A stretch of 64,000 nucleotides of DNA from a virus. Both the position numbers and the translations under genes were made by a program. The stretch is taken from IMG/VR virus record IMGVR_UViG_3300029305_006397; one strand, given 5' to 3'. Below the pieces are notes generated by a model. The model did no database searches, was not told the origin of the DNA, and saw only the letters and a program-made list of their open reading frames with translations. How positions within the stretch are numbered: position 1 is the first letter of the stretch; every line of letters starts with the position of its first letter. Shown piece by piece: positions 18,850 through 59,903 of this stretch.

Positions 18850-19234
18850 ACAGCAGAGAAGTTTAAACCTTGTGTTTTTTTAATGCGGAGCTAACGGGAC
18901 ATTGTTTCAGCTCAGGCATTTCTTCGTAACACATTACTCCTACTTCCAAAGGATGCACTTTAAGACCGTATGTCTTGCTGCTGCGCAGAGGTAGCATTTC
19001 CTCCGCTTGAACACTTTCGCAGTTCCCGGCACTAGACACTTTCGTAGTCTCCAACGCCATCGTTTGTATGCTCAATTTACTTTTACCCAGTAGCGAACTG
19101 GAGAAGGCTGAACCACCTGGCTATAAATACAACAATGGTCTAAGCGTTAGGCAGACGGTCAAGAATCTGCCCCACGGAATCGTACCGTGCCACCTGCGGT
19201 AAATAAGACGCAGGATCGAACCTCGCTTTTAGGA

Positions 19235-21316: not shown

Positions 21317-21402
21317 TGGTGAATACAATTGGATTCGAACCAATGCTCGACGACTGAGCCAAAGGCATGGGCCGTCCGTGCTAACCGCTACACCATATAT
21401 TC
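21317..21402 (-). tRNA. atypical 86-nt tRNA-like gene, expanded anticodon arm, isotype unassigned
   Basis: acceptor GAATATA/TGTATTC, D-arm GTGTAGCGGTTAGCAC, T-arm ATTGGTTCGAATCCAAT, ACCA end; about 13 extra nt in the anticodon arm. Confidence 0.45.
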
Positions 21403-21627: not shown

Positions 21628-21878
21628 ATATGTAATGCCCCTGGTTGTATTAAATACATATGCATATGGATAGCTACGTCCCGCGAAGGAGTATTCGCGT
21701 GTATGCCTGACTTAAATCACGGACTCCAATTGTATTACTATGTGACGCATACTTTCGTTTTTATCCGCTATCTGGACGGGGCAGGTTAAGCGATAACCTA
21801 TGCCTTTCGACAACCCAGCCTCTAATAAGAGGCTGACGCTCATGGCCTAATGTCCTGTTTCAACTCGCCATGACGAGC

Positions 21879-22729: not shown

Positions 22730-23905
22730 TCAAGCTTCTGCTTTAAAATTATAGATGGGTTTAAAACGATCTACGATATCTACGGTTGGGCCAATGCAAT
22801 TAATAATTTCCTGATAATCCTTGTAAACAAAAGGAGCTTCATCCAAGGTTGATTCATTAATGCATGTGGAATATATGCCATTCATAGTTTCGGCATATTC
22901 TTCTACGGTAAATATCTTCTTTGCCTGTGCGCGAGAATACAGGCGACCAGCTCCATGAGGAGCAGAACAATTCCATTCGGTATTGCCCTTTCCTCTGCAG
23001 ATCAAAAGACCATCACGCATATTAAGAGGAATTACAAGAAACTGACCTTGCTGCGCAGAGATTGCGCCTTTGCGCAAAATCATTTCTTTCACATTGATAT
23101 AATTATGTACACTATCAATGCAATAATCGATTTCACCACCCATAGCAGATACGATTGTATGCAACATTATCCATCTATTCTGTTCAGCAAATTCCTGTAG
23201 AATTGCAACGTCATGAAGATAATCATCCATGTCCTGTCCGGTAAGATAACAAAGATCGGGATCAATTGCGATATGATGTTCAGACAGCCATTGCTGGCGC
23301 ATAACAGGTTCAATAAACTGCAGTTGCTCCATGCGCAAATTATAGTTGTATTTCTTTATGCGATTTACGGCGAGGTTCTGGTAGTATTGAGCCACTTTCA
23401 GGCCGATATTGCGACTGCCTGAATGAACAGCGATATATCCATTTTCATACGCTTCGATGAAATGGTTCCCACCTCCAAGAGTTCCAAGGGTACACTTTGC
23501 CCTTTCCTGGGTCGCTTTATCCAATTTGTCCCAGCACCGCAATTCTTCGAAATCTCGTTCCCATACCTTCTCAGTCGAATGTACATCCATACCAAACGGA
23601 ATACTAGATCGGATAGCGGCGTCCAATTCATCAAGGCGAGAATCAAAATCAATATTGGTTTGTACAAGTGATACACCACAACCGATATCTACGCCAACCA
23701 AATTCGGGCATACCTTATCCGTGATATGCATAGTAGTACCGATTACACAGCCAGCTCCGGCATGGGCATCCGGCATGATTCGAATATGTGCGTCCTTACC
23801 CAAAGGAGAATCCGCCATCTTTTTAATTTGATCGATAGCTTGATCCTCAATTGTCTTAGCATAAATGACGACATCATCACCATGGGTAGACTTATATATT
23901 TTCAC
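22730..23905 (-). CDS. rtcB: RtcB RNA 3'-phosphate/2',3'-cyclic phosphate ligase
   Basis: PDAHAGAG, GGGNHFIE, HSGSRNIG, HNY and HGAGR motifs; GTG start with AAGGTGA SD. Confidence 0.9.
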   Translation of the reverse strand: MKIYKSTHGDDVVIYAKTIEDQAIDQIKKMADSPLGKDAHIRIMPDAHAGAGCVIGTTMHITDKVCPNLVGVDIGCGVSLVQTNIDFDSRLDELDAAIRSSIPFGMDVHSTEKVWERDFEELRCWDKLDKATQERAKCTLGTLGGGNHFIEAYENGYIAVHSGSRNIGLKVAQYYQNLAVNRIKKYNYNLRMEQLQFIEPVMRQQWLSEHHIAIDPDLCYLTGQDMDDYLHDVAILQEFAEQNRWIMLHTIVSAMGGEIDYCIDSVHNYINVKEMILRKGAISAQQGQFLVIPLNMRDGLLICRGKGNTEWNCSAPHGAGRLYSRAQAKKIFTVEEYAETMNGIYSTCINESTLDEAPFVYKDYQEIINCIGPTVDIVDRFKPIYNFKAEA

Positions 23906-46498: not shown

Positions 46499-46588
46499 CC
46501 TACGACACAAGCGGAAGGAAAGATAGGAAGGAAGAAAACCTTCCGCTTGTCATTTCGGCTGGTTGCCGTCCAGCTCTCGTCAGGTAGG
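46499..46588 (-). ncRNA. hammerhead ribozyme, type I (HH-5)
   Basis: minus strand CCUAC-CUGACGA-G..stem II..C-GAAA-12-bp stem III-GUC/GUAGG; predicted cleavage between 46504 and 46503; UGA stop of 46580..46786 lies inside the CUGACGA core. Confidence 0.8.
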
Positions 46589-47022: not shown

Positions 47023-47089
47023 TCCACGACACAGCCGGAATTTTCCGACTATGTTTCGACCGGGCATCACCCGGTTCTCGTCAGGTGGA
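47023..47089 (-). ncRNA. hammerhead ribozyme, type I (HH-4)
   Basis: UCCAC-CUGACGA-G(A)ACCGGG-UGAUG-CCCGGUC-GAAA-CAUAGUCGG-AAAAUU-CCGGCUGUGUC/GUGGA; predicted cleavage between 47028 and 47027. Confidence 0.85.
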
Positions 47090-47973: not shown

Positions 47974-48219
47974 TTAACCCTCCATCATGCAGCCCATTTC
48001 AAGCTGTACACGGTGATTGAAATCTTCCATCGCAGCCTTAAGGTCATTCAGGAAGTAATGACCGTGACAATAGGATTTTCCGTTCATACAAAACCATGTA
48101 ATCCACATGATTCCCTGACTTGTTTCAGTTTTTGCCAGAACAACTTCGCCCTCAATGACAGGCTCCGCATGGATAATCTCACAATTTTCCGAGTAGTTTT
48201 TGTTGTAGCGCCTTTCCAT
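47974..48219 (-). CDS. hypothetical protein
   Basis: conserved leader GGAAAAGATAGGAGGAAAC upstream. Confidence 0.55.
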   Translation of the reverse strand: MERRYNKNYSENCEIIHAEPVIEGEVVLAKTETSQGIMWITWFCMNGKSYCHGHYFLNDLKAAMEDFNHRVQLEMGCMMEG

Positions 48220-48274
48220 GTATGTTTCCTCCTATCTTTTCCTTATGGTTTCCATGGATATTTCCATGGGGTTT

Positions 48275-48342
48275 CCCACGACGCTCTCAGGATTTTCCAT
48301 CAAGCGTTTCGGTTGCTAACCGGGCAGCCATCATCAGGTGGG
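48275..48342 (-). ncRNA. hammerhead ribozyme, type I (HH-3)
   Basis: CCCAC-CUGAUGA-U-stem II-GAAA-CGCU..AGCGUC/GUGGG; predicted cleavage between 48280 and 48279; stem II pairing less regular. Confidence 0.7.
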
Positions 48343-48343
48343 G

Positions 48344-48547
48344 TTAAAAAACGAATCCGGCATAAACCATCTTGTTTCCGTCCAGCATCCTCCATGCGTT
48401 AGCATCGTCCCATGCCGTACAACAGTAACGTTTTTCCGACCTGTCATATTCGCCGCGGATATAGACCCGATTTGCAGACTCTTTCAACTTGAAAAATTCT
48501 CCATGCTTCAGGTCTTTCAGCTTGTACATTCCTGCATCTCTTTCCAT
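48344..48547 (-). CDS. hypothetical protein
   Basis: stop TAA abuts HH-3 stem I. Confidence 0.55.
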   Translation of the reverse strand: MERDAGMYKLKDLKHGEFFKLKESANRVYIRGEYDRSEKRYCCTAWDDANAWRMLDGNKMVYAGFVF

Positions 48548-48548
48548 G

Positions 48549-48743
48549 TTAGGCTCCCTTCTTAATCCGCTTTACTTCGATATGATCGTAGCCTTTATCC
48601 GGGTGAAGAAAATTCCGAATACCATAGCTTCGTGCTTCCTGCTCATTAGTTGCTTCGATCTTGTGATATTCCAAGGCCATGCCAGATTTTCCGACACCAA
48701 TTCGATAGAGATATTTCCTTGCCATTGTGCTTCCTCCGTTCAT
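48549..48743 (-). CDS. hypothetical protein
   Basis: ATGA overlap with upstream micro-ORF. Confidence 0.55.
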   Translation of the reverse strand: MNGGSTMARKYLYRIGVGKSGMALEYHKIEATNEQEARSYGIRNFLHPDKGYDHIEVKRIKKGA

Positions 48744-48913
48744 TTACCGATTGCCTCGGCGTAGTATTCGTCGAAATTTCCGAAAACTTCCAGATACACC
48801 ATGCCACCATTGCCCCGATAAGGCCGGATATTTTTCATGATGAATCGATATTCCGTGAACATCAATGCAAGCACACAAAGGGCAATACATGCTCCAATCG
48901 CCAGCTTTTTCAT
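48740..48913 (-). CDS. 57-aa membrane micro-protein
   Basis: own translation MKKLAIGACIALCVLALMFTEYRF...; conserved leader upstream. Confidence 0.45.
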   Translation of the reverse strand: MKKLAIGACIALCVLALMFTEYRFIMKNIRPYRGNGGMVYLEVFGNFDEYYAEAIGK

Positions 48914-48949
48914 GATTTTCCTCCTATCTTTTCCATGTGGTTTTGACTT

Positions 48950-49015
48950 CCCACGACAGGCCAGCTCAAGGCCAGCCTGTTTCGGCTCGTTGTCAACTCG
49001 CCATCGTCAGGTGGG
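48950..49015 (-). ncRNA. hammerhead ribozyme, type I (HH-2)
   Basis: CCCAC-CUGACGA-U-GGC(GA)GUU-GAC-AAC(GA)GCC-GAAA-CAGGCUGGCC..GGCCUGUC/GUGGG; predicted cleavage between 48955 and 48954. Confidence 0.75.
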
Positions 49016-49020
49016 TATGC

Positions 49021-49482
49021 TTACCATTCCTCCAATTCTTCCTCCAGATCGGCGATTTCTTCCTCCAGATCATCGGCATCCGACTGGTAATTGCTTCTCC
49101 AGATTGCCATTCTCAGGCTTTCGATTTCTTCCTCGTCCAGCTCATTCATTCCGGCAAGCTCACGATTGGAATTGATTTCGTCGATTTGTTCCTCGACTTC
49201 TTCTTCGTAACTTTCCTTGAGTTCTTCCAGCTCGTACTGTTTTTCTTCCAGTTCGGCGCGGATAACTTTCTCGGAACGGATTCCAACCCATTCATACACG
49301 GATTCCGGCTCAAACCAAAGCAGATCATTTAGACCAGTTTCGGTCATTCCATCCGGGTACAAATCCTCCAGAACAGCCTCCAGCTGCGCACATTTTCCGG
49401 CGTTGCGTACACGATCAAGGGTATCGACAGCTCCAGACCATGCCTCGAAAGTTTCCAAATCAAGCTCGTATGTGATTTTCAT
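49021..49482 (-). CDS. hypothetical highly acidic protein
   Basis: C-terminal half very E/D rich; stop 5 nt before HH-2 stem I. Confidence 0.6.
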   Translation of the reverse strand: MKITYELDLETFEAWSGAVDTLDRVRNAGKCAQLEAVLEDLYPDGMTETGLNDLLWFEPESVYEWVGIRSEKVIRAELEEKQYELEELKESYEEEVEEQIDEINSNRELAGMNELDEEEIESLRMAIWRSNYQSDADDLEEEIADLEEELEEW

Positions 49483-49589
49483 TGTAAAATTCCCCTTCCT
49501 ATCTTTCCAAATGATTGACAGGAAGGGGCAAACTATGATATATTTCTGTATAGGAAGGGCGGAAGGAAATTCCCTCCACCCCCATGCGG

Positions 49590-49673
49590 TTAGATTTCGT
49601 CCGGGTTATCCGTGGCGCGAATAATCCCATCAGACCACATCCAGCCGTATTTAGTCCGATACAGGGCTTTCAT
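49590..49673 (-). CDS. possible 27-aa micro-protein
   Basis: own translation MKALYRTKYGWMWSDGIIRATDNPDEI; leader AAAGATAGGAAGGAGG upstream. Confidence 0.3.
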   Translation of the reverse strand: MKALYRTKYGWMWSDGIIRATDNPDEI

Positions 49674-49699
49674 GGCGGTTGTCCTCCTTCCTATCTTTT

Positions 49700-49734
49700 T
49701 ATAAAAAGCGGTCTTGTGTTGGTAGCACAAGGCC
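49700..49734 (-). terminator. possible intrinsic terminator or attenuator
   Basis: GGCCUUGUG-CUACCAA-CACAAGACC then GCUUUUUAU on minus strand. Confidence 0.4.
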
Positions 49735-49958
49735 GTTTTTATCTTTTAAAGCCGTTTTTTCTACGATACGGCAAAACGCTTGACCCATGCTATATGGGAA
49801 TGAATCGGGGTTCAAGGGATTGCCCCGGTCGCCTCCAGCCGTGTTCTTACATGCCGCTGGACACAGGTAGCCTGCATAATCATCTCATTCTCCGGCTACA
49901 GAGTTTTGCGCGGTTTCGATAGACGCACATTTATTGGCGGTTGCTATCGGGAATGGTT

Positions 49959-50020
49959 AACCCAGACCAGCCCATGTGGGCGTGGTTTCGTCGCAATTTT
50001 CAGCGACTCGTCAGTGGGTT
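49959..50020 (-). ncRNA. hammerhead ribozyme, type I (HH-1)
   Basis: AACCCA-CUGACGA-GUCGC-UGAAAAUU-GCGAC-GAAA-CCA(C)GCCC-ACAU-GGGCUGGUC/UGGGUU; predicted cleavage between 49965 and 49964; overlaps stop of 50011..50208. Confidence 0.85.
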
Positions 50021-50208
50021 TCAGGGTATTCCATTGCTATGGCTCTGACGGCTTCAATATCCGTCAACATTCCTCTTTCATATACGCGCAAAATATTTTC
50101 TATGCGTGTTTTTCTTAATTCTTTGATAGACGTTAACATTAACGTATTTTCTGCATCTGTCTGAAGCATATCTTGCGCAAACTCATGCACATAGCGTTTT
50201 CTTCTCAT
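50011..50208 (-). CDS. hypothetical protein
   Basis: last codons and UGA lie in HH-1 stem I and core. Confidence 0.55.
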   Translation of the reverse strand: MRRKRYVHEFAQDMLQTDAENTLMLTSIKELRKTRIENILRVYERGMLTDIEAVRAIAMEYPETH

Positions 50209-50230
50209 GTTTATACCTTCCCTTCTCTTT

Positions 50231-50298
50231 CCATACCCACGCCCCGGCAGGGCGTGACGCTCACGGCTTAAATGGCTTTTTATAGTCGCCGTGACGAC
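50231..50298 (-). ncRNA. pistol ribozyme (P-2)
   Basis: GUCG-UCACGGC-GAC-UAUAAAAAG-CCAU-UUAA-GCCGUGA-GCG-UCACGCCC-UGCCG-GGGCGUGG-GU-AUGG; loop/GCCGUGA pseudoknot and CCAU/AUGG helix; predicted G/U cleavage between 50236 and 50235. Confidence 0.75.
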
Positions 50299-50610
50299 TC
50301 AGACAATTATGCAGCGTTTGAACGGATTTTCGCAGGGGTCGCAACCGAAACCGAAATTTTCTCCGTATATATCGATATACTGAAGTCCAGCGAATTTGCC
50401 GTTCTGAATGGTTTTTAACTCCATTGTAGCGCGGCGCATAGCCTGTTTTGCCTGTTTAATGGTTACGTCGTCGATATTGTAGAATCTGTTTAGCTTGTTT
50501 TGAATTTTATTCAAGAAATTCATTGCAAGGTCATTTGTAACATTCTTTTTATCGGACTCCATGAAACAGTCAAACCCGTATGCACGAAGATAAAAACCCT
50601 GTTTTTTCAT
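50299..50610 (-). CDS. hypothetical protein
   Basis: stop abuts pistol P-2. Confidence 0.55.
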   Translation of the reverse strand: MKKQGFYLRAYGFDCFMESDKKNVTNDLAMNFLNKIQNKLNRFYNIDDVTIKQAKQAMRRATMELKTIQNGKFAGLQYIDIYGENFGFGCDPCENPFKRCIIV

Positions 50611-50633
50611 TGTATAACCCTCCCTATCTATTT

Positions 50634-50698
50634 TTGAACCCGCCCCAAACGGGGCGACGCTTTGGGCCTAATCAACTATTTAAAGTCGCCCAAACGAC
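50634..50698 (-). ncRNA. pistol ribozyme (P-1)
   Basis: GUCG-UUUGGGC-GAC-UUUAAAUAG-UUGA-UUAG-GCCCAAA-GCG-UCGCCCC-GUUU-GGGGCGG-GU-UCAA, near-identical in layout to the published pistol consensus; predicted G/U cleavage between 50639 and 50638. Confidence 0.85.
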
Positions 50699-50955
50699 TA
50701 AACGCGCATTACATTGTCAAGATAAATGCGCATTGCACCCTTACGAATATATGCCCGACCTGCCGTCGAATAGTGGACTTTATGACGATGAAAACCCACA
50801 TATCCTTCAGGGTTAACCCATGCCGCAATATAATCGCATTCGAATTTATCGCCGTCGTCGGGTTCCCAAAGTGCAACGCCGAAACAGTTGGAAAAATGGC
50901 AAACGCCAACCGGGGCAATATTAGAATAACGCTTGTAAAGTGCTACATTTTTCAT
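50698..50955 (-). CDS. hypothetical protein
   Basis: stop codon G is the first nt of pistol P-1. Confidence 0.55.
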   Translation of the reverse strand: MKNVALYKRYSNIAPVGVCHFSNCFGVALWEPDDGDKFECDYIAAWVNPEGYVGFHRHKVHYSTAGRAYIRKGAMRIYLDNVMRV

Positions 50956-50989
50956 TGTGTTTTACCTTCCCTCTTTTTTTTAGGTTATT

Positions 50990-51044
50990 CACCCGACGCC
51001 CGGCAGGGCGTTTCGTCTTAATTTTCAAAGACTCTTCAGGGGCG
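50990..51044 (-). ncRNA. hammerhead ribozyme, type I (HH-6)
   Basis: CGCCC-CUGAAGA-GUCUU-UGAAAAUU-AAGAC-GAAA-CGCCC-UGCC-GGGCGUC/GGGUG; predicted cleavage between 50995 and 50994. Confidence 0.9.
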
Positions 51045-51047
51045 TTA

Positions 51048-51368
51048 TTATCTCAAGTTGTCGTTATATGCAATATCCCTGTTTTTGATTGCAATTTCGA
51101 TTCGCTTTTTGCTAACGTCGCCGCCGAAAATGTGACGGGCGTATTCGCGCAAAAACTCATAGAGATATTTTGCGGTTGTATTGGAGTAACACCAATTCCG
51201 ACCCAAAGTCAACGCCGCCGCGCCCTGCGCGTCATAATCAACGATTGCAATAACGCTGTCATAAGACTGGAAAATAACAGCATTATTGGAGTGAATGATA
51301 AACTGGTTTGCAACGGGGCGACCACTTCGGGGGGATACCATGTTCCTAACACTTGCATATTTCATCAT
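51048..51368 (-). CDS. hypothetical protein (first gene of the ribozyme-punctuated operon)
   Basis: GGAAGGTG SD; conserved motif copy 27 nt upstream. Confidence 0.6.
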   Translation of the reverse strand: MMKYASVRNMVSPRSGRPVANQFIIHSNNAVIFQSYDSVIAIVDYDAQGAAALTLGRNWCYSNTTAKYLYEFLREYARHIFGGDVSKKRIEIAIKNRDIAYNDNLR

Positions 51369-51395
51369 GTTTTACACCTTCCTATTCTTTTCTTG

Positions 51396-51414
51396 TTTGC
51401 AAGTAATGTTTATT
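51396..51414 (-). promoter_or_regulatory. conserved phage motif copy
   Basis: AATAAACATTACTTGCAAA on minus strand, just upstream of 51048..51368. Confidence 0.45.
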
Positions 51415-51856
51415 ACTATGCATAAACCCGACTTTCGACGGGCTTTAGTCGCCTGTTATAATCTCGTTTGAATGTCAAGCCCTAAGCAGCTTGCAGGGAC
51501 TTTCGGCGTATGCGGTACTTGTTTGCATTCTGCCGGATTTGTGATTCTTTCTCGATTCTAACAAGCGTCTAAAGCCTATTGAGTAGACTTTAGTTAGAAA
51601 AGATAGAAAAGATAAAGGTTTGAGGGCTTTTAATGAGGCTGTAAAAACAGCGTCAAGACTTAGGATTATACGCGCCCTTATTAGGGGATTTTTCGACGGC
51701 CTGCACCTTTGCGGTATAGGTTTTTAATTAACCATTGCAGCCCCGGACTTGCGACCATTCGCCCTGCGACCTTTGCCGCTTTTTTCGCCTTTTTGAGACG
51801 GGGTTCAATCGTGCGCGTAGTATCCTTTGCGCCCTTGAATTTATTCAATTTTCAAG

Positions 51857-51885
51857 TTGCCTTTTGCGTACAAACGTGGTATAAT
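51857..51885 (+). promoter_or_regulatory. sigma70-type promoter (TTGCCT-17 nt-TATAAT, TG extension)
   Basis: read directly; followed by a GC-rich untranslated segment of about 225 nt before 52123. Confidence 0.55.
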
Positions 51886-52037
51886 AACCACGTTCGGCAC
51901 GGCCTCGGCTTCCCTCTCAACCTTGCAGGGCTTGCGTCCTCTCGGGGTTCGTGGTTCGGCCTCGGGCTTGTGTCGTTCGGGTTCCGGTTCCGGGGTTCCG
52001 GTTCCGTTGCCGTCCTGACGTGTATTATGTTACACCA

Positions 52038-54589: not shown

Positions 54590-54648
54590 TCTAAAATTCT
54601 CAGACTAAGTAAGGATGAATGAAATGGGTAAATAAAGAAGGTGTTTGT

Positions 54649-57534
54649 ATGCCTCTGGATAAGCAAATTCAAATTATCTCGACTGATACTGCGGGATTCT
54701 ACAGCAACCATGAGGCAAGGTTGCATTTGAAAAATCATAAACTTCGAAGCGAAAGAAAAATACTTAAAAAAGGCGGAGTCGTTAAAAGAGCAAATGGAGA
54801 CAAACGGATCGTTATTGGTTTAGATGAAATTGAAAATAAGCTTGCCGTATTTGGTATTTACTCTACTGACATAGAAGACATCATAAACGAACGCTTTAAT
54901 TTTGACGACTATACCTTAGAGGATATAGGCGAAATTAAGCATTTGATTTCCGATTACAACTTGAAAAAGAAGCTAATTGAAATCAAGAACGCTGCAATCA
55001 GCGAAAGCAAAGAGCAGCTTTTGAAGCTCTTGGCGAATAAAGTCCAGGAGAACGTAAGCTCAAATGGAAGGCATCATACGAGGTACTTGAGAGAGAATAG
55101 CGTTGTAAACAGTAATATCATTTCGGTATTTGATTCGTCCTTTACGAGAATGATCGGAGCAAAGGAAAATGAATTATGCGAAGATTTTATGGTGATTCAG
55201 GTATTTTACTTTGATGTATTGAAAGATATTCTGTATCATGGGTATACATACAAGGGCGAGAAATATATTTATTTTACTTCATCTGCCGGACAGATCAGGA
55301 CAAAAAAAGCGGTTTTTGTAAAAGAAAAAATCTGGAACGAGCATGAGCGTACAATTATGTGTGGATTAACGCTTGACGAGATAAATCGCAAGGGAGGTAA
55401 CAATCCCAATAAGCATCTGGCTTATATGGCTTTGAGCAATTCAGCCACTGATTTGTGGCCTGAGTTCGATATTGATAAAGCCATTGTAATCGATGATTTT
55501 GAAACCAATGTATTTGGAACCTACGATCTCGTGGATGATGCGGACTATACTATTACCAGGGTTTCAGATTTTGTTCCTATATCTCATACAGATGGCGCTG
55601 GTATGATACTCCCCTGTGCCTTTGGAAAGACCCAGAAAAATAAAATGGTTCGATTACCGTGGATTAAAGGATTGCTTGGCGTTTTTGATTTTAGGAAGTT
55701 TATAATTGATCAAGGAGCTTCGCCAGTAATTCGAGATATTTACGGAAAAGAACACAATTTGATTTCCGAAGATATCCAGGTAGTTTTCACCAAATCTCAG
55801 CATAAAATGTGGAAATACTATAACTCCTGGAACGAATATAAAGCGGCTTATAAGAAATATGGTTGTACTGCCGGATATACCAATGAAGAAGAGTTGAATA
55901 TTCCTAATGCGTCCATCAACTATCAAATGCTTCAAACACTGACGGATATTACTCCGGAAGAGATTTTAAAAATTGCAAATAAATCTATTGGCTGTTTGGA
56001 AAATATGACGAGCAGTATAGATAACATTCGAGCAGCATTTGGTGGAGCAAATTATAATCAGGATAAGAGTAGTTTGAACAAAGCATTAGATTTATACCCT
56101 GATCTATTAAACGATGATTGGATTAAGAGAACCCTCCGGGCAATTCGCGATAGCTTGATCAAGGATTATAAAGCTGGAAAATTGAGAGTGCGAGGCAAAT
56201 ACACATTCTTACTCCCTGATTTTTATGCTGCATGCCAATATTGGTTCCTTGGGATCGAGGAACCGGAAGGGCTTTTGCAAGATGGAGAGGTATTTTGTTG
56301 GTTATTTCCTGAAAGCGAAAAATTAGATTGCTTGCGAAGTCCTCATTTATATCGCGAACATCCTATTCGCAGGAATGTCGCATGGATAGGTTATAAAGAA
56401 AGACAAGCCAAGATCAGAGAATGGTTTGGTACAAACGCAGTTTATACGAGCTGCCATGATTTGATCAGCAAGATTTTGCAGTTTGATGTTGACGGAGATA
56501 AGAGTCTGGTGGTGGCAGATAAAACTATTATTGACGTTGCAGAGCGTAATATGCAAGGAATTGTTCCTTTGTATTATAACATGCGTAAAGCTTCTCCAGT
56601 GCAATTGAATAACGAAACGATCTATAACGGGTTGAACGCAGCATTTGTTGGCGGTAATATTGGAATATACAGCAATAATATTTCAAAGATTTGGAATAGT
56701 GAAGTTTTCATAAGCGGCAGCAATGAAGAACGTCGGGAAGCATTGGATATTATTAAGTTGCTTTGTATGGAAAATAATTTCGTTATCGATTATGCCAAAA
56801 CTCTGTATAAACCAGAACGCCCTAAGCACATTCACGAAAGAATCCTGGCCTTTACAAGAAATAAGCTTCCTCATTTTTTCGTTTATGCTAAAGACAAGCT
56901 GGACGATCAAGTGGAAAAACGCAATGGCAGTTTCGTAAATCAGTTGGATGATATAATACCTGTCCCCAGGTTCCATTTCAAAAAACTTGGTTTAGAAAAA
57001 GTTGAACATAGGTTTTTAATGCATGATTCAAATTGCACTGCAAGAGTAGCTTTTACAGATTCGGGTAAAATCATTTCAGAAGAGACAGACCCTTTAATTT
57101 TGGCGTACCATGCATTAAATAAAAAATATTTTTTGGACTTGGGAGAAGTATTACAGGTGAACTATTGCAATACTGAGTTGATATCAATATACGCTAAAAA
57201 TGGTGCTCTTGCCAAGAAGCAGCAAATGATCGAAGAAACGAAAAGCATTCTATCTGAATTTGGATATAATCAAAATCAAATTGTAGATATTTTAGTCGAT
57301 TATGTGTATGGGAAAAATAGGTCGAATGCAAAAGCACTGCTATGGCTTTGCTATGGCGATTCGATTTATAAGAATATGCTACAATATTTAATTCCGGATT
57401 TTAAGACGATACAGTGCGTAGATTGCGATGCATTATTTTCTGTTTCTGCTAAAAATCAATATGCATGCCGTTGTCCAGAATGTGCTAAAAAGCAGAAAAA
57501 GGCCGAAAGGCAATTAAAAAAGATGCTGTCTTAA
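54649..57534 (+). CDS. YonO-like single-subunit RNA polymerase (two-barrel, RdRP-related family)
   Basis: FTSSAGQIRTKKAVF, LRSPHLYREHP and metal-binding QFDVDGDKSLVV motifs in the order seen in YonO and cellular RdRP-type polymerases; start placed at ATG 54649 (track start 54619). Confidence 0.65.
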   Translation: MPLDKQIQIISTDTAGFYSNHEARLHLKNHKLRSERKILKKGGVVKRANGDKRIVIGLDEIENKLAVFGIYSTDIEDIINERFNFDDYTLEDIGEIKHLISDYNLKKKLIEIKNAAISESKEQLLKLLANKVQENVSSNGRHHTRYLRENSVVNSNIISVFDSSFTRMIGAKENELCEDFMVIQVFYFDVLKDILYHGYTYKGEKYIYFTSSAGQIRTKKAVFVKEKIWNEHERTIMCGLTLDEINRKGGNNPNKHLAYMALSNSATDLWPEFDIDKAIVIDDFETNVFGTYDLVDDADYTITRVSDFVPISHTDGAGMILPCAFGKTQKNKMVRLPWIKGLLGVFDFRKFIIDQGASPVIRDIYGKEHNLISEDIQVVFTKSQHKMWKYYNSWNEYKAAYKKYGCTAGYTNEEELNIPNASINYQMLQTLTDITPEEILKIANKSIGCLENMTSSIDNIRAAFGGANYNQDKSSLNKALDLYPDLLNDDWIKRTLRAIRDSLIKDYKAGKLRVRGKYTFLLPDFYAACQYWFLGIEEPEGLLQDGEVFCWLFPESEKLDCLRSPHLYREHPIRRNVAWIGYKERQAKIREWFGTNAVYTSCHDLISKILQFDVDGDKSLVVADKTIIDVAERNMQGIVPLYYNMRKASPVQLNNETIYNGLNAAFVGGNIGIYSNNISKIWNSEVFISGSNEERREALDIIKLLCMENNFVIDYAKTLYKPERPKHIHERILAFTRNKLPHFFVYAKDKLDDQVEKRNGSFVNQLDDIIPVPRFHFKKLGLEKVEHRFLMHDSNCTARVAFTDSGKIISEETDPLILAYHALNKKYFLDLGEVLQVNYCNTELISIYAKNGALAKKQQMIEETKSILSEFGYNQNQIVDILVDYVYGKNRSNAKALLWLCYGDSIYKNMLQYLIPDFKTIQCVDCDALFSVSAKNQYACRCPECAKKQKKAERQLKKMLS

Positions 57535-59496: not shown

Positions 59497-59498
59497 AT

Positions 59499-59570
59499 CG
59501 CCGGGTGGTGTAAATGTTAGCACCGCAGACTATGATTCTGCGAATAAAGGTTTAAATCCTTTTCCGGCGA
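59499..59570 (+). tRNA. atypical tRNA with anticodon ATG (formally His), no CCA
   Basis: acceptor CGCCGGG/TCCGGCG, D-arm GTGT..GCAC, anticodon arm GCAGA-CUAUGAU-UCUGC, T-arm AAAGG-TTTAAAT-CCTTT. Confidence 0.5.
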
Positions 59571-59903
59571 TTATGTTATCTATTTCCCAACATACTGTCA
59601 TGCGTGGGTGGAATAAGAAGAGACGGGCGTTTTCGGTCGGCATAAACCGAAGTTTGGCATTTGAGGTCAAATGAGTTTGATGAATGCAATCCCGTGCTGC
59701 TATGCGGTATTTGCAGGAGAACAACAGGGGTTTGCGTATAACCACAAGGCAGCTAGGTACAATCCGAAAGAAAAACGGTTATAAAGGGCGTCCCGCCACC
59801 TATATCCCAAGTGTGGAACGATAAAGCAGGTGTTTCGCTGCCTATAAATGCGAAATTTAATCAGCTCCGTGTTGGATATTTTGACATGCGGAGCATTTTA
59901 TAT

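Follow-up and report, generated by a model that had tools for sequence, protein, structure and literature searches.

The locus described here raises the question of whether two short sequences, each lying between small genes of a phage, are self-cleaving pistol ribozymes, and of what a cut at these positions might do for the virus. The window, i.e., the whole 64,000-nt stretch of DNA that was analysed, belongs to an SPbeta-like phage of gut Clostridia that carries a YonO-type RNA polymerase, an RtcB RNA ligase and tRNA arrays. A first-pass annotation had proposed two pistol ribozymes at 50231-50698 of this window.

Two pistol ribozymes in the gaps between small genes

In an Rfam cmscan of the whole window, the Pistol model (RF02679) matched both sequences, with scores of 68.4 bits (E 2.5e-10) for pistol 1 and 67.9 bits (E 3.2e-10) for pistol 2, approximately twice the model's gathering score of 34.5 bits. 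These E-values already take into account the 64-kb length, the two strands and the 4227 families, and both copies span model positions 1-68 of 68. Using our own model, R1, the scores were 77.8 and 81.3 bits, respectively. A covariance-model comparison was the check that the first-pass annotation had named, and its outcome bore out the presence of two pistols in this interval; the location was likewise right, except that the model places the 5' end of pistol 1 at 50699, one base further. Both motifs lie on the minus strand, the strand having been left unstated at first.

In both pistols, P1 is a 5-bp helix (AGUCG/CGACU), and the loop of P1 forms the pseudoknot with the segment that links the 5' strands of P2 and P3. 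Pistol 1 has the pseudoknot UUUGGG/CCCAAA, the P2 helix UUGA/UCAA and a 7-bp P3 with the loop GUUU; the corresponding elements of pistol 2 are UCACGG/CCGUGA, CCAU/AUGG and a P3 of 8-9 bp. The linker is AAAUAG in pistol 1 and AAAAAG in pistol 2, the GCG junction is present in both, and the two-base P3-P2 junction holds the cleavage step (GG^UUCAA and GG^UAUGG, respectively, where ^ marks the predicted cut). Thus, every P2 helix, linker, GCG junction, P3 hairpin and G-U step that had been listed was found in the sequence. The pseudoknot had been described as 7 bp long. The pairing is present, but the canonical length is 6 bp, because C12 pairs with G5 to close P1 and G33 is a conserved junction base, which excludes C12-G33. 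At position 32 the copies differ, with G in pistol 1 and A in pistol 2, each of them a frequent base there among viral pistols. P3 was rejected as a terminator, as neither pistol P3 hairpin is among those listed in the promoter/terminator scan.

The two copies differ from each other at three of six pseudoknot pairs and at all four P2 pairs, with pairing retained in every case, so that the compensatory change claimed for them is real. MAFFT alone shifted the differences in P3-loop length to the 3' end, and the P3 loops were therefore N-padded by hand to hold the register. Across eight related pistols, orthologues included, and bearing in mind that pair counts from hand-padded alignments lean toward the imposed structure, standard pairs occupy 184 of 184 pair cells and two-sided changes occur at 17 of 23 pairs, a value equalled by none of 500 shuffles; in slid controls, pairing was only 33-44%, as opposed to 100% in the true register. 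Two-sided changes in the eight sequences affect all six pseudoknot pairs, all four P2 pairs and six of the eight P3 pairs, and covariation backs P1, the pseudoknot, P2 and P3. In the relative L141, a P2 pair of pistol 1 has changed from U-A to C-G, and the pistol 2 orthologues in L131 and L141 have the pseudoknot UUGCGG/CCGCAA, with two pairs compensated. Every stem substitution that separates close relatives is either compensatory or a wobble, which shows that the fold is under ongoing purifying selection.

Both copies also match all 26 columns in which 46 independent IMG/VR pistols reach a conservation of at least 90%, 15 of these columns being forced by the search pattern and 11 being independent of it. 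The independent positions are U29, U30, A31, G33, C34, A39, G40, C41, G42 and the G^U step, and the capital letters of the Rfam consensus are matched by both pistols as well. That the two sequences are chance resemblances or inactive relics is extremely unlikely, given an E-value of approximately 1e-10 after correction for window and families, the absence of any altered conserved position and the complete retention of pairing; a true relic looks different, with only P1 remaining in the relative L132. Taken together, model fit, conserved columns and covariation support the original reading of the two motifs: both are genuine textbook pistol ribozymes of the minus strand by class assignment, with cleavage predicted from the sequence.

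Each pistol exactly occupies the gap between two small genes and has the same orientation as its neighbouring ORFs, with a distance from the stop codon of -2 nt for pistol 1 and -1 nt for pistol 2 (Table 1). Members of the pistol class cut at a junction of exactly two nucleotides, as a rule GU, that connects the 3' strands of P3 and P2 (Harris 2015, PMC4604425), and cleavage at GU junctions proceeds at approximately 10 per minute (PMC4604425). The predicted RNA downstream of pistol 1 begins 5'-OH-UUCAAAAAUAGAUAGGGAGGGUUAUACA-AUG, with a leader of 28 nt, and after both cuts the predicted mRNA of the 103-aa ORF would measure 403 nt (50638..50236). Homologues of this ORF show 53-100% identity.

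Pfam and PADLOC yielded nothing useful for the small ORFs, and a PHROGs search of them returned only families of unknown function and one weak SbcC-like match (E 0.001). The 106-aa ORF bears the precomputed Pfam label DUF8033, yet a fresh Pfam scan gave no match. The weak matches of a 153-aa ORF to LmuB and PDC-S15 (E 1e-4 and 6e-3) were taken as spurious. The plus-strand ORFs that overlie the pistols (50272-50418, 50580-50816 and 50662-51021) were also treated as spurious, being antisense to genes with homologues. A sigma-70 promoter scan gave 22 matches, as compared with 15.7 +/- 4.2 in shuffles, i.e., no enrichment, and did not define the transcript start; nor was the CATGGAAA motif seen in some leaders convincingly enriched (12 versus 5 +/- 2 expected), several of its copies being start codons. 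A first transcription unit may end at 49704-49740, where there is a terminator-like hairpin.

Using a pattern derived from these copies, we gathered 63 distinct viral pistols. In this sample, which by the way it was gathered represents one pistol subfamily, a same-strand ORF ends at most 60 nt upstream of 40 of the 63 pistols, a stop codon ends between -2 and +3 nt of pistol base 1 in 26 of these 40 (22 of 54 pistols with this phage and its relatives left out), and a Shine-Dalgarno sequence with a start codon lies downstream of 33, at a median of 35 nt. The opposite-strand control, under the same limits, gave 12/63 for ORF ends, 5/63 for starts and 0/63 for stop codons at -2 to +3 nt. The very frequent fusion of the pistol 5' end to the upstream stop codon provides a rule for annotating genes and ribozymes, and hints at an interplay with translation. 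As a counterpoint, compaction alone would put any intergenic element tightly between a stop codon and a ribosome-binding site.

Nine ribozymes at consecutive gene junctions

The two pistols belong to a run of nine ribozymes within 46.5-51.05 kb (nine in 4.9 kb), comprising six hammerhead candidates, HH-A to HH-F, the two pistols and one twister-P5. The first-pass annotation had covered neither the placement between stop codon and ribosome site nor the third pistol, nor the seven other ribozymes of the transcription unit. All nine are on the minus strand and all are at gene junctions, the distance between stop codon and ribozyme ranging from -10 to +5 nt, and the blocks between them contain one to three ORFs (271-1010 nt). 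Co-oriented ribozymes between consecutive same-strand genes are the arrangement criterion of Perreault 2011, and this is the arrangement found here. The twister begins on the TAA stop codon of a 61-aa ORF, with an overlap of 1 nt, and the TGA stop codon of a 68-aa ORF falls in the CUGA core of HH-F. RAGATH-36 and drum RNA are also present in the window, beside pistol, twister and hammerhead.

Table 1. Features of the ribozyme run and of the tRNA-array region, in minus-strand order
Feature	Position	Strand	Basis or remark
106-aa ORF, first recognisable gene of the run	51048..51368	-	phrog_21575
HH-A, candidate type-I hammerhead	50990..51044	-	own descriptor; predicted cut 50995^50994
85-aa ORF	50698..50955	-	phrog_17101, function not known; pistol 1 begins on the last two TAG bases
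Pistol ribozyme 1	50634..50699	-	66 nt; RF02679
Predicted cleavage step, pistol 1	50638..50639	-	G(50639)^U(50638); junction position in model alignment
103-aa ORF between the two pistols	50299..50610	-	last TGA base is base 1 of pistol 2
Pistol ribozyme 2	50231..50299	-	69 nt; RF02679
Predicted cleavage step, pistol 2	50235..50236	-	G(50236)^U(50235); 27-nt leader to AUG at 50208
65-aa ORF downstream of pistol 2	50011..50208	-	TGA inside CUGA core of HH-B
HH-B, candidate type-I hammerhead	49959..50020	-	descriptor; fold z-score -3.8; predicted cut 49965^49964
HH-C, candidate type-I hammerhead	48950..49015	-	extra U after A9; predicted cut 48955^48954
HH-D, candidate type-I hammerhead	48275..48342	-	extra U after A9; predicted cut 48280^48279
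Twister ribozyme, type P5	47517..47576	-	RF02684, 50.9 bits (gathering score 37.6); predicted cut U47549^A47548, which we take to be the place of cutting in the twister class
HH-E, candidate type-I hammerhead	47023..47089	-	fold z-score -4.3; predicted cut 47028^47027
HH-F, candidate type-I hammerhead, long stem III	46499..46588	-	predicted cut 46504^46503
RtcB RNA ligase gene	22730..23905	-	Pfam PF01139, E 3.8e-63
Third pistol	21809..21878	-	Rfam 61.6 bits; R1 81.4 bits

The hammerheads were judged by the features of Perreault 2011, i.e., the core C3 U4 G5 A6 N7 G8 A9...G12 A13 A14 A15.1...U16.1 H17, core-adjacent pairs and three stems. All six candidates possess the core together with stems I, II and III closing in pairs at it, with the extra U of HH-C and HH-D lying between A9 and 10.1; HH-A, for instance, reads CGCCC-CUGAAGA-G UCUU..AAGAC-GAA-ACGCCC..GGGCGU-C^GGGUG. 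The minimum-energy fold is a three-way junction for HH-A, HH-B and HH-E and comes near to one for HH-D and HH-F; the unconstrained minimum-energy fold of HH-C is without the hammerhead shape. Our own descriptor yields approximately 0.6 hits per shuffled window, as compared with the six clustered here. No candidate reaches the threshold of the Rfam hammerhead models: HH-A scored 25.8 bits against RAGATH-1-hammerhead, below its gathering score of 56.3, and HH-B to HH-F gave nothing at E <= 1. We therefore report the six as candidates, on the strength of the descriptor, folding, clustering and orthologues. That six canonical candidates were missed by these models indicates that routine scans undercount phage ribozymes.

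With regard to orthologues, HH-A is conserved in L131 and L141, HH-B has counterparts in both relatives in which stem II is compensated, and a copy of HH-C is found in L141. The conserved stretch of approximately 210 nt that follows HH-B has no match in Rfam. In a blastn search of GenBank phages with 48000-52000, the sole match was 82 nt long, covered HH-A and came from two Agathobaculum phages.

Relatives were obtained from a protein database and contig look-ups; IMG/VR single-protein scans with the 103-aa and 85-aa ORFs found none. Pistol, twister-P5 and hammerhead motifs also occur in relatives with a YonO-type polymerase of 57-59% identity, where they lie in the operon that runs divergently from the polymerase gene; more distant relatives are without such motifs there. 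The ribozyme class changes at corresponding junctions. At the end of the 85-aa gene, this phage and L141 have a pistol and L138 has a hammerhead. Ahead of the 103-aa gene, the pistol of this phage corresponds to a hammerhead in L131 and to a twister-like motif in L135. After the 103-aa gene, the pistol found here, in L131 and in L141 is represented by a decayed, P1-only pistol in L132, a hammerhead variant in L135 and an intrinsic terminator in L133. Such exchanges, in which one junction has a pistol in some phages and a hammerhead, a twister or a terminator in others, speak for a cut or an RNA end at that junction as the thing that selection keeps.

This turnover also bears on the idea of gene-plus-ribozyme cassettes that are selfish or neutrally shuffled, in which the ribozymes would be kept because they travel with small accessory genes, and not for any benefit of the cut to the phage. 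Such cassettes would account for the unit of 85-aa ORF and pistol 1 being present in L141 and here and absent from L131, for the wide variation in operon gene content between relatives, and for L132 having kept the neighbouring gene while its pistol decayed. They fit poorly with the refilling of a junction by another ribozyme or a terminator once a class is lost, and with the exclusively compensatory or wobble character of the stem substitutions described above, and we consider this explanation improbable.

Probable processing of the transcript and competing explanations

The two sequences are, in our view, probably active-type pistols that serve to process a polycistronic mRNA, encoding small phage genes, while it is being transcribed. 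Each pistol would fold as it is synthesized, the P1 hairpin first, then the 6-bp pseudoknot, and then P3 and P2. By the chemistry of the class, the 2'-OH of the junction G would attack the G^U phosphate, cutting at the predicted steps of Table 1. The upstream product would be a compact ribozyme body ending in a 2',3'-cyclic phosphate, and the downstream product would start with a 5'-OH, followed by five ribozyme bases and a 27-28-nt leader with a strong Shine-Dalgarno site. Together, the two pistols, six hammerheads and the twister may split a transcript of approximately 4.9 kb into mRNAs of one to three genes. Defined ends on each piece could uncouple the stability and translation of neighbouring genes, and the object of selection would then be the cut at the junction, whichever ribozyme class makes it.

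As a counterpoint, a cut may destabilise the downstream message instead of protecting it. RNase J1 of Firmicutes can act on an RNA with a 5'-OH end, as is known from work on the glmS ribozyme. The cuts might therefore serve shut-down, the 5'-OH exposing the downstream cistron to RNase J1-type decay and making the expression of distal early genes graded or short-lived. Nine successive destabilising cuts would, however, nearly silence the distal genes, and yet these are conserved; every downstream leader, moreover, has a very strong Shine-Dalgarno sequence 12-20 nt from the new 5' end. In Bacillus, a Shine-Dalgarno sequence near the 5' end is known to shield it. We thus hold decay to be rather unlikely as the purpose of the cuts, even though the chemistry and placement would be the same as under processing, the hosts are Clostridia and Lachnospiraceae, i.e., Firmicutes, and glmS, the sole bacterial ribozyme of proven role, acts through decay of its 5'-OH product (see review PMC6765202).

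Returning to processing, the fate of the ends has to be considered together with the phage's RtcB gene, which adjoins a 12-tRNA array. RtcB ligates 2',3'-cyclic phosphate to 5'-OH ends, and these are the ends that all of the ribozymes described here would produce. A link between RtcB and the ribozymes is something that we infer from this match of ends. If the ligase joined consecutive ribozyme ends, circular, exonuclease-resistant mRNAs or re-ligated transcripts would result, for which engineered ribozyme-plus-RtcB circular-RNA systems and animal retrozymes are precedents. The ligase is phage-encoded, and ribozymes bounding every gene block would make exactly its substrates. The substrate strands of neighbouring ribozymes run GGGUG, UUCAA, UAUGG, UGGGUU, GUGGG, GUGGG, GUGGA and GUAGG. 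Stem I of HH-C and HH-D is identical (CCCAC/GUGGG), so that the 5' end of the 675-nt fragment between them could dock into HH-D; apart from this pair, the strands differ, also between the two pistols, and the UUCAA at the 5' end of the 103-aa mRNA cannot pair with the P2 strand CCAU of pistol 2. Similarly, the four hammerheads of L138 have four different stem I sequences. In addition, the position beside 12 tRNAs makes tRNA repair the ordinary explanation for the ligase. Circular or spliced products were raised as a possibility by Perreault et al., who sought them and found none (PMC3088659). Cutting and rejoining is accordingly very unlikely as the function of the run.

A related proposal starts from the overlap of stop codons with ribozymes. 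A ribosome terminating on the upstream gene might melt P1, the pseudoknot or the core, so that cleavage would depend on how tightly translation trails transcription, with RtcB then rejoining or circularising the ends. We give this proposal a low probability; if true, the array would be a regulated cut-and-rejoin system for early mRNAs, beyond simple processing.

The third pistol lies within a minus-strand tRNA array, with tRNA-Leu(UAA) on one side and tRNA-Met on the other, and has no adjoining ORF.

Relation to known systems

In comparison with the pistol class (RF02679; Weinberg et al. 2015; Harris et al. 2015, PMC4604425), the copies described here have the same P1-P3, 6-bp pseudoknot, AAA linker, UUA-R-G, GCG and G^U junction, with no structural difference. 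They also share the phage context of the class, and the present copies are metagenomic. Similarly, the association of twister, hammerhead, pistol, hatchet and RAGATH RNAs with phage genes (Weinberg et al. 2015; review PMC6765202) is the same co-occurrence that led to the discovery of pistol, and the window is an especially dense example of it. For most self-cleaving ribozymes of bacteria and phages, a biological role is still to be settled (see review PMC6765202).

The third pistol resembles the HDV-like theta ribozymes of gut phage tRNA arrays (PMC10879173) in being a small ribozyme embedded in such an array. It differs from these in class and in lying approximately 130 nt from the nearest tRNA instead of abutting it, and neither a suppressor tRNA nor recoding was seen in the window. 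A more distant parallel is provided by eukaryotic RNA viruses, in which a type-I hammerhead fills a short intergenic UTR and cuts a few nt before the start codon, yielding a subgenomic mRNA (bioRxiv 10.1101/2024.05.16.594327). Those viruses have RNA genomes and cap-independent translation, whereas the present case is a DNA phage with Shine-Dalgarno-led translation.

The closest precedent is that of Perreault et al. 2011, who described clustered prophage hammerheads flanking single genes or short blocks (PMC3088659); these cleave in vitro within transcripts of approximately 2 kb, with one case of cleavage in E. coli (PMC3088659). The arrangement has thus been on record for prophages since 2011, and no new ribozyme class is involved here. 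Both systems show clustering, co-orientation with small, varied phage genes and one to three genes bounded by ribozymes, and the proposed role, the conversion of long phage RNAs into gene-length mRNAs (PMC3088659), is alike. In contrast to the 2011 hammerheads, three classes are mixed here, nine ribozymes are found in 4.9 kb, the classes interchange at orthologous junctions, and stop codons overlap the ribozyme 5' end or core. With three classes at consecutive junctions, class swaps in relatives and RtcB in the same genome, the locus is an unusually clean natural test bed.

Pistol class membership and covariation

Both minus-strand copies, for which the first-pass annotation had proposed a pistol fold within 50231-50698, fit the Rfam pistol covariance model (RF02679) over its full length, with scores (see table) that compare with a gathering score of 34.5 bits. 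Chance is excluded, since the E-values are corrected for a search of 64 kb on both strands with 4227 families. The pseudoknots (UUUGGG/CCCAAA in pistol 1, UCACGG/CCGUGA in pistol 2), P2 helices (UUGA/UCAA and CCAU/AUGG, respectively), linkers (AAAUAG and AAAAAG), GCG junction and GC-rich P3 were all recovered, as was the G|U within the two-base junction. The pseudoknot had been described as 7 bp long; six of these pairs are canonical, whereas the seventh, C12-G33, was discarded because it competes with the P1 closing pair and takes a conserved junction G. Both copies also matched every column with a conservation of 90% or more among 46 independent viral pistols, including 11 that were not imposed by the search pattern.

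To assess covariation, the two copies were aligned with a third pistol of the window and with orthologous and neighbouring pistols of related contigs, the P3 loops being padded with Ns to hold the register. Across eight pistol sequences, standard pairs were found in 184 of 184 pair cells and both-sided changes in 17 of 23 pairs (6/6 in the pseudoknot, 4/4 in P2, 6/8 in P3), counts that lean to the model since structure and padding were set by hand, which does not apply to the independent Rfam score. None of 500 shuffles matched these pair counts, and slid partners paired at 33-44%. Close orthologues provide the most telling evidence. In contig L141, whose protein next to the pistol shares 95% identity with that of the window, pistol 1 has a P2 pair changed from U-A to C-G and a pseudoknot pair from G-C to G-U, while pistol 2 of L131 and L141 carries two doubly compensated pseudoknot pairs (UUGCGG/CCGCAA). 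The compensatory changes noticed between the two copies, with pseudoknot and P2 doubly changed and pairing kept, extend to close orthologues. We show, at the level of sequence and covariation, that both elements belong to the pistol class; the original observation and its interpretation hold, and the pistols extend a known class by new members, their type of context being likewise known.

Features of the window (positions in nt)
Feature	Position	Strand	Description
Pistol 1	50634-50699	(-)	Rfam RF02679, 68.4 bits, E 2.5e-10
Pistol 2	50231-50299	(-)	Rfam RF02679, 67.9 bits, E 3.2e-10
Third pistol	21809-21878	(-)	Rfam, 61.6 bits; within minus-strand tRNA array
Twister-P5	47517-47576	(-)	Rfam, 50.9 bits
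HH-A	50990-51044	(-)	candidate type-I hammerhead
HH-B	49959-50020	(-)	candidate type-I hammerhead
HH-C	48950-49015	(-)	candidate type-I hammerhead; extra U after A9
HH-D	48275-48342	(-)	candidate type-I hammerhead; extra U after A9
HH-E	47023-47089	(-)	candidate type-I hammerhead
HH-F	46499-46588	(-)	candidate type-I hammerhead
Stretch downstream of HH-B	49700-49958	(-)	about 260 nt, no convincing ORF
Terminator-like hairpin	49704-49740		end of that stretch
RtcB RNA ligase gene	22730-23905	(-)	Pfam, E 3.8e-63; directly upstream of 12-tRNA array
YonO-type single-subunit RNA polymerase gene	54619-57534	(+)	Pfam RdRP family
RAGATH-36 RNA	19031-19192	(-)	73.2 bits; within tRNA array
Drum RNA	59675-59782	(+)	62.1 bits; within tRNA array
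tRNA	21317-21402	(-)	ARAGORN; unassignable two-base anticodon 'ca'
tRNA-His	59498-59571	(+)	ARAGORN; anticodon ATG, usual GTG
GGAACC-like repeats	51930-52010	(-)	non-coding, between divergent operons; ggaaccggaaccccggaaccggaacccgaac

Ribozymes at gene junctions

Both pistols share the strand of a run of small minus-strand ORFs, to which Pfam, PHROGs and PADLOC assigned no function. An 85-aa ORF ends in a TAG stop codon whose final two bases are also the start of pistol 1; a 103-aa ORF, located between the two ribozymes, ends in TGA, the final base of which is also the start of pistol 2. The predicted cuts (50639|50638 and 50236|50235) fall 28 and 27 nt ahead of the next AUG, with strong Shine-Dalgarno sites just downstream.

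The same operon contains a twister-P5, which shares one base with the upstream stop codon, and six candidate type-I hammerheads (HH-A to HH-F), each with a complete core and three stems. Twister-P5 is also found in the equivalent operon of L142 and L145. Rfam called none of the six hammerheads, HH-A alone appearing, at 25.8 bits against RAGATH-1-hammerhead. Our own descriptor placed all six on the minus strand within 4.6 kb, compared with approximately 0.6 matches per Markov-shuffled window; one further weak match elsewhere in the window is probably due to chance. For most of the six, the minimum-energy structure is the hammerhead junction, and copies occupy the same junctions in related contigs. 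The stem II loop of HH-A and HH-B is the same, UGAAAAUU(A), and is found again in hammerheads of L131, L135, L138, L140 and L141.

Each of the nine ribozymes is placed at -10 to +5 nt from a stop codon and ahead of the ribosome-binding site that comes next, and two hammerheads hold the TGA stop codon within their CUGA core. The blocks so bounded comprise one to three ORFs and 271-1010 nt. The stretch downstream of HH-B, which had no Rfam match, could be a small RNA freed by the hammerhead; L141, and in part also L140, conserves approximately 210 nt of it, with several compensatory stem changes and a near-invariant block (GGUCAAGCGUUU.GCCGUA.CGU).

Similar positions were found among 63 distinct viral pistols, a sample gathered by pattern from the window copies and thus representing one subfamily. 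A same-strand ORF ended within 60 nt upstream in 40 of the 63, with the stop codon ending at -2 to +3 nt of pistol base 1 in 26 of those 40, and a Shine-Dalgarno-led start followed downstream in 33 (median 35 nt). Under the same limits, the opposite strand of these 63 gave an ORF end in 12, a start in five and no stop codon ending at -2 to +3 nt. When this phage and its relatives were set aside, stop-codon fusion occurred in 22 of 54 pistols. In IMG/VR loci L011-L090, the pistol very often begins with the third base of the preceding stop codon (TAA then GUCG), and L050, L056, L084, L047 and L060 hold two to three pistols in a few kb.

Ribozyme class at orthologous junctions

Orthologues of both pistol-adjacent genes were traced in related contigs and their flanks scanned. 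The 3' side of the 85-aa gene carries a pistol in the window and L141, and a hammerhead in L138. The 5' side of the 103-aa gene is occupied by a pistol in the window, by a twister-like motif in L135 and by a hammerhead in L131, a contig lacking both the 85-aa ORF and pistol 1. The 3' side of that gene holds a pistol in the window, L131 and L141, a hammerhead variant in L135 and an intrinsic terminator in L133. In L132 (5315-5370), where the 103-aa orthologue is 73% identical, it holds the pistol P1 hairpin only (AGUCGUUGCAGCGGCU), with a ribosome-binding site directly after; this element is a decayed pistol. As different classes, or a terminator, occupy the same junctions, class is interchangeable, the recurring feature being an RNA end at that place. 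That the 85-aa ORF and pistol 1 are present or absent as a unit would also suit gene-plus-ribozyme cassettes that hitch-hike neutrally, an explanation that is highly improbable given its misfit with strictly compensatory substitutions.

At L135 1-3500 (and in L136), four pistol matches lie within 3.5 kb, two of them barely over the gathering score. Of the L135 pistols, one has AAGGAGG within a 24-nt P3 loop and another a longer P1. Besides the twister-like motif, this contig has two motifs resembling hammerheads, of which one has the core CUGAACGAG (one-base insertion).

Phage context and proposed role

The window is from a large phage infecting Clostridia of gut or rumen. The assemblies most closely related to it at the genome level are gut and rumen Clostridia and Lachnospiraceae, and contigs with identical small proteins reach 146 kb. 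The YonO-type polymerase, with 44% identity to those of SPbeta and phi3T and 46% to that of Clostridium phage D-1873, is encoded divergently from the ribozyme-rich operon. In relatives with a 57-59% identical polymerase, the divergent operon likewise contains motifs of the pistol, twister-P5 and hammerhead classes; in more distant SPbeta-like relatives, it is without ribozyme motifs.

The window also has two tRNA arrays, in which the tRNA with the 'ca' anticodon and the tRNA-His with ATG are unusual members. The third pistol lies approximately 130 nt past tRNA-Leu(UAA) and 180 nt ahead of tRNA-Met, and as it has no adjacent ORF, it may process a tRNA precursor rather than an mRNA. RAGATH motifs, one of which is present here, were first found close to self-cleaving ribozymes.

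Pistols cut themselves at a GU junction; the reaction is an internal phosphoester transfer, runs at approximately 10 per minute and leaves 2',3'-cyclic phosphate and 5'-OH ends (PMC4604425). We propose that the ribozymes would cut the polycistronic transcript during its synthesis. The mRNA upstream of each cut would retain a compact pseudoknotted 3' end, that downstream would have a strong ribosome-binding site some 12-20 nt after its 5' end, and the fates of adjacent genes would be separated. A rival possibility is that cleavage exposes the 5'-OH ends to exonucleases and so lowers the stability of the downstream cistrons, for which the glmS ribozyme provides a precedent; strong ribosome sites near the new ends make this unlikely. 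RtcB acts on 2',3'-cyclic phosphate and 5'-OH, exactly the ends expected from all ribozymes of the window, and the phage enzyme might thus rejoin or circularise the cut ends. We consider this extremely improbable, given that substrate strands differ between neighbours (the P2 strands of the two pistols are non-interchangeable and only HH-C and HH-D match), that RtcB adjoins a tRNA array, tRNA repair being the ordinary reading, and that circular products were sought earlier in a similar system and none found (PMC3088659).

We favour cleavage that separates the fates of adjacent genes. The density and class mix of ribozymes in one array, the six candidate hammerheads missed by curated models, the class swaps at orthologous junctions and the stop-codon fusion go beyond a routine Rfam match, and with them the locus is well suited to finding out which purpose phage ribozymes serve. 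A transcript-processing role is still listed as unproven in a review (PMC6765202). Clustered prophage hammerheads cleave within approximately 2-kb transcripts in vitro and, in one case, in E. coli, and the role proposed for them is the same as that which we propose for the window array (PMC3088659).
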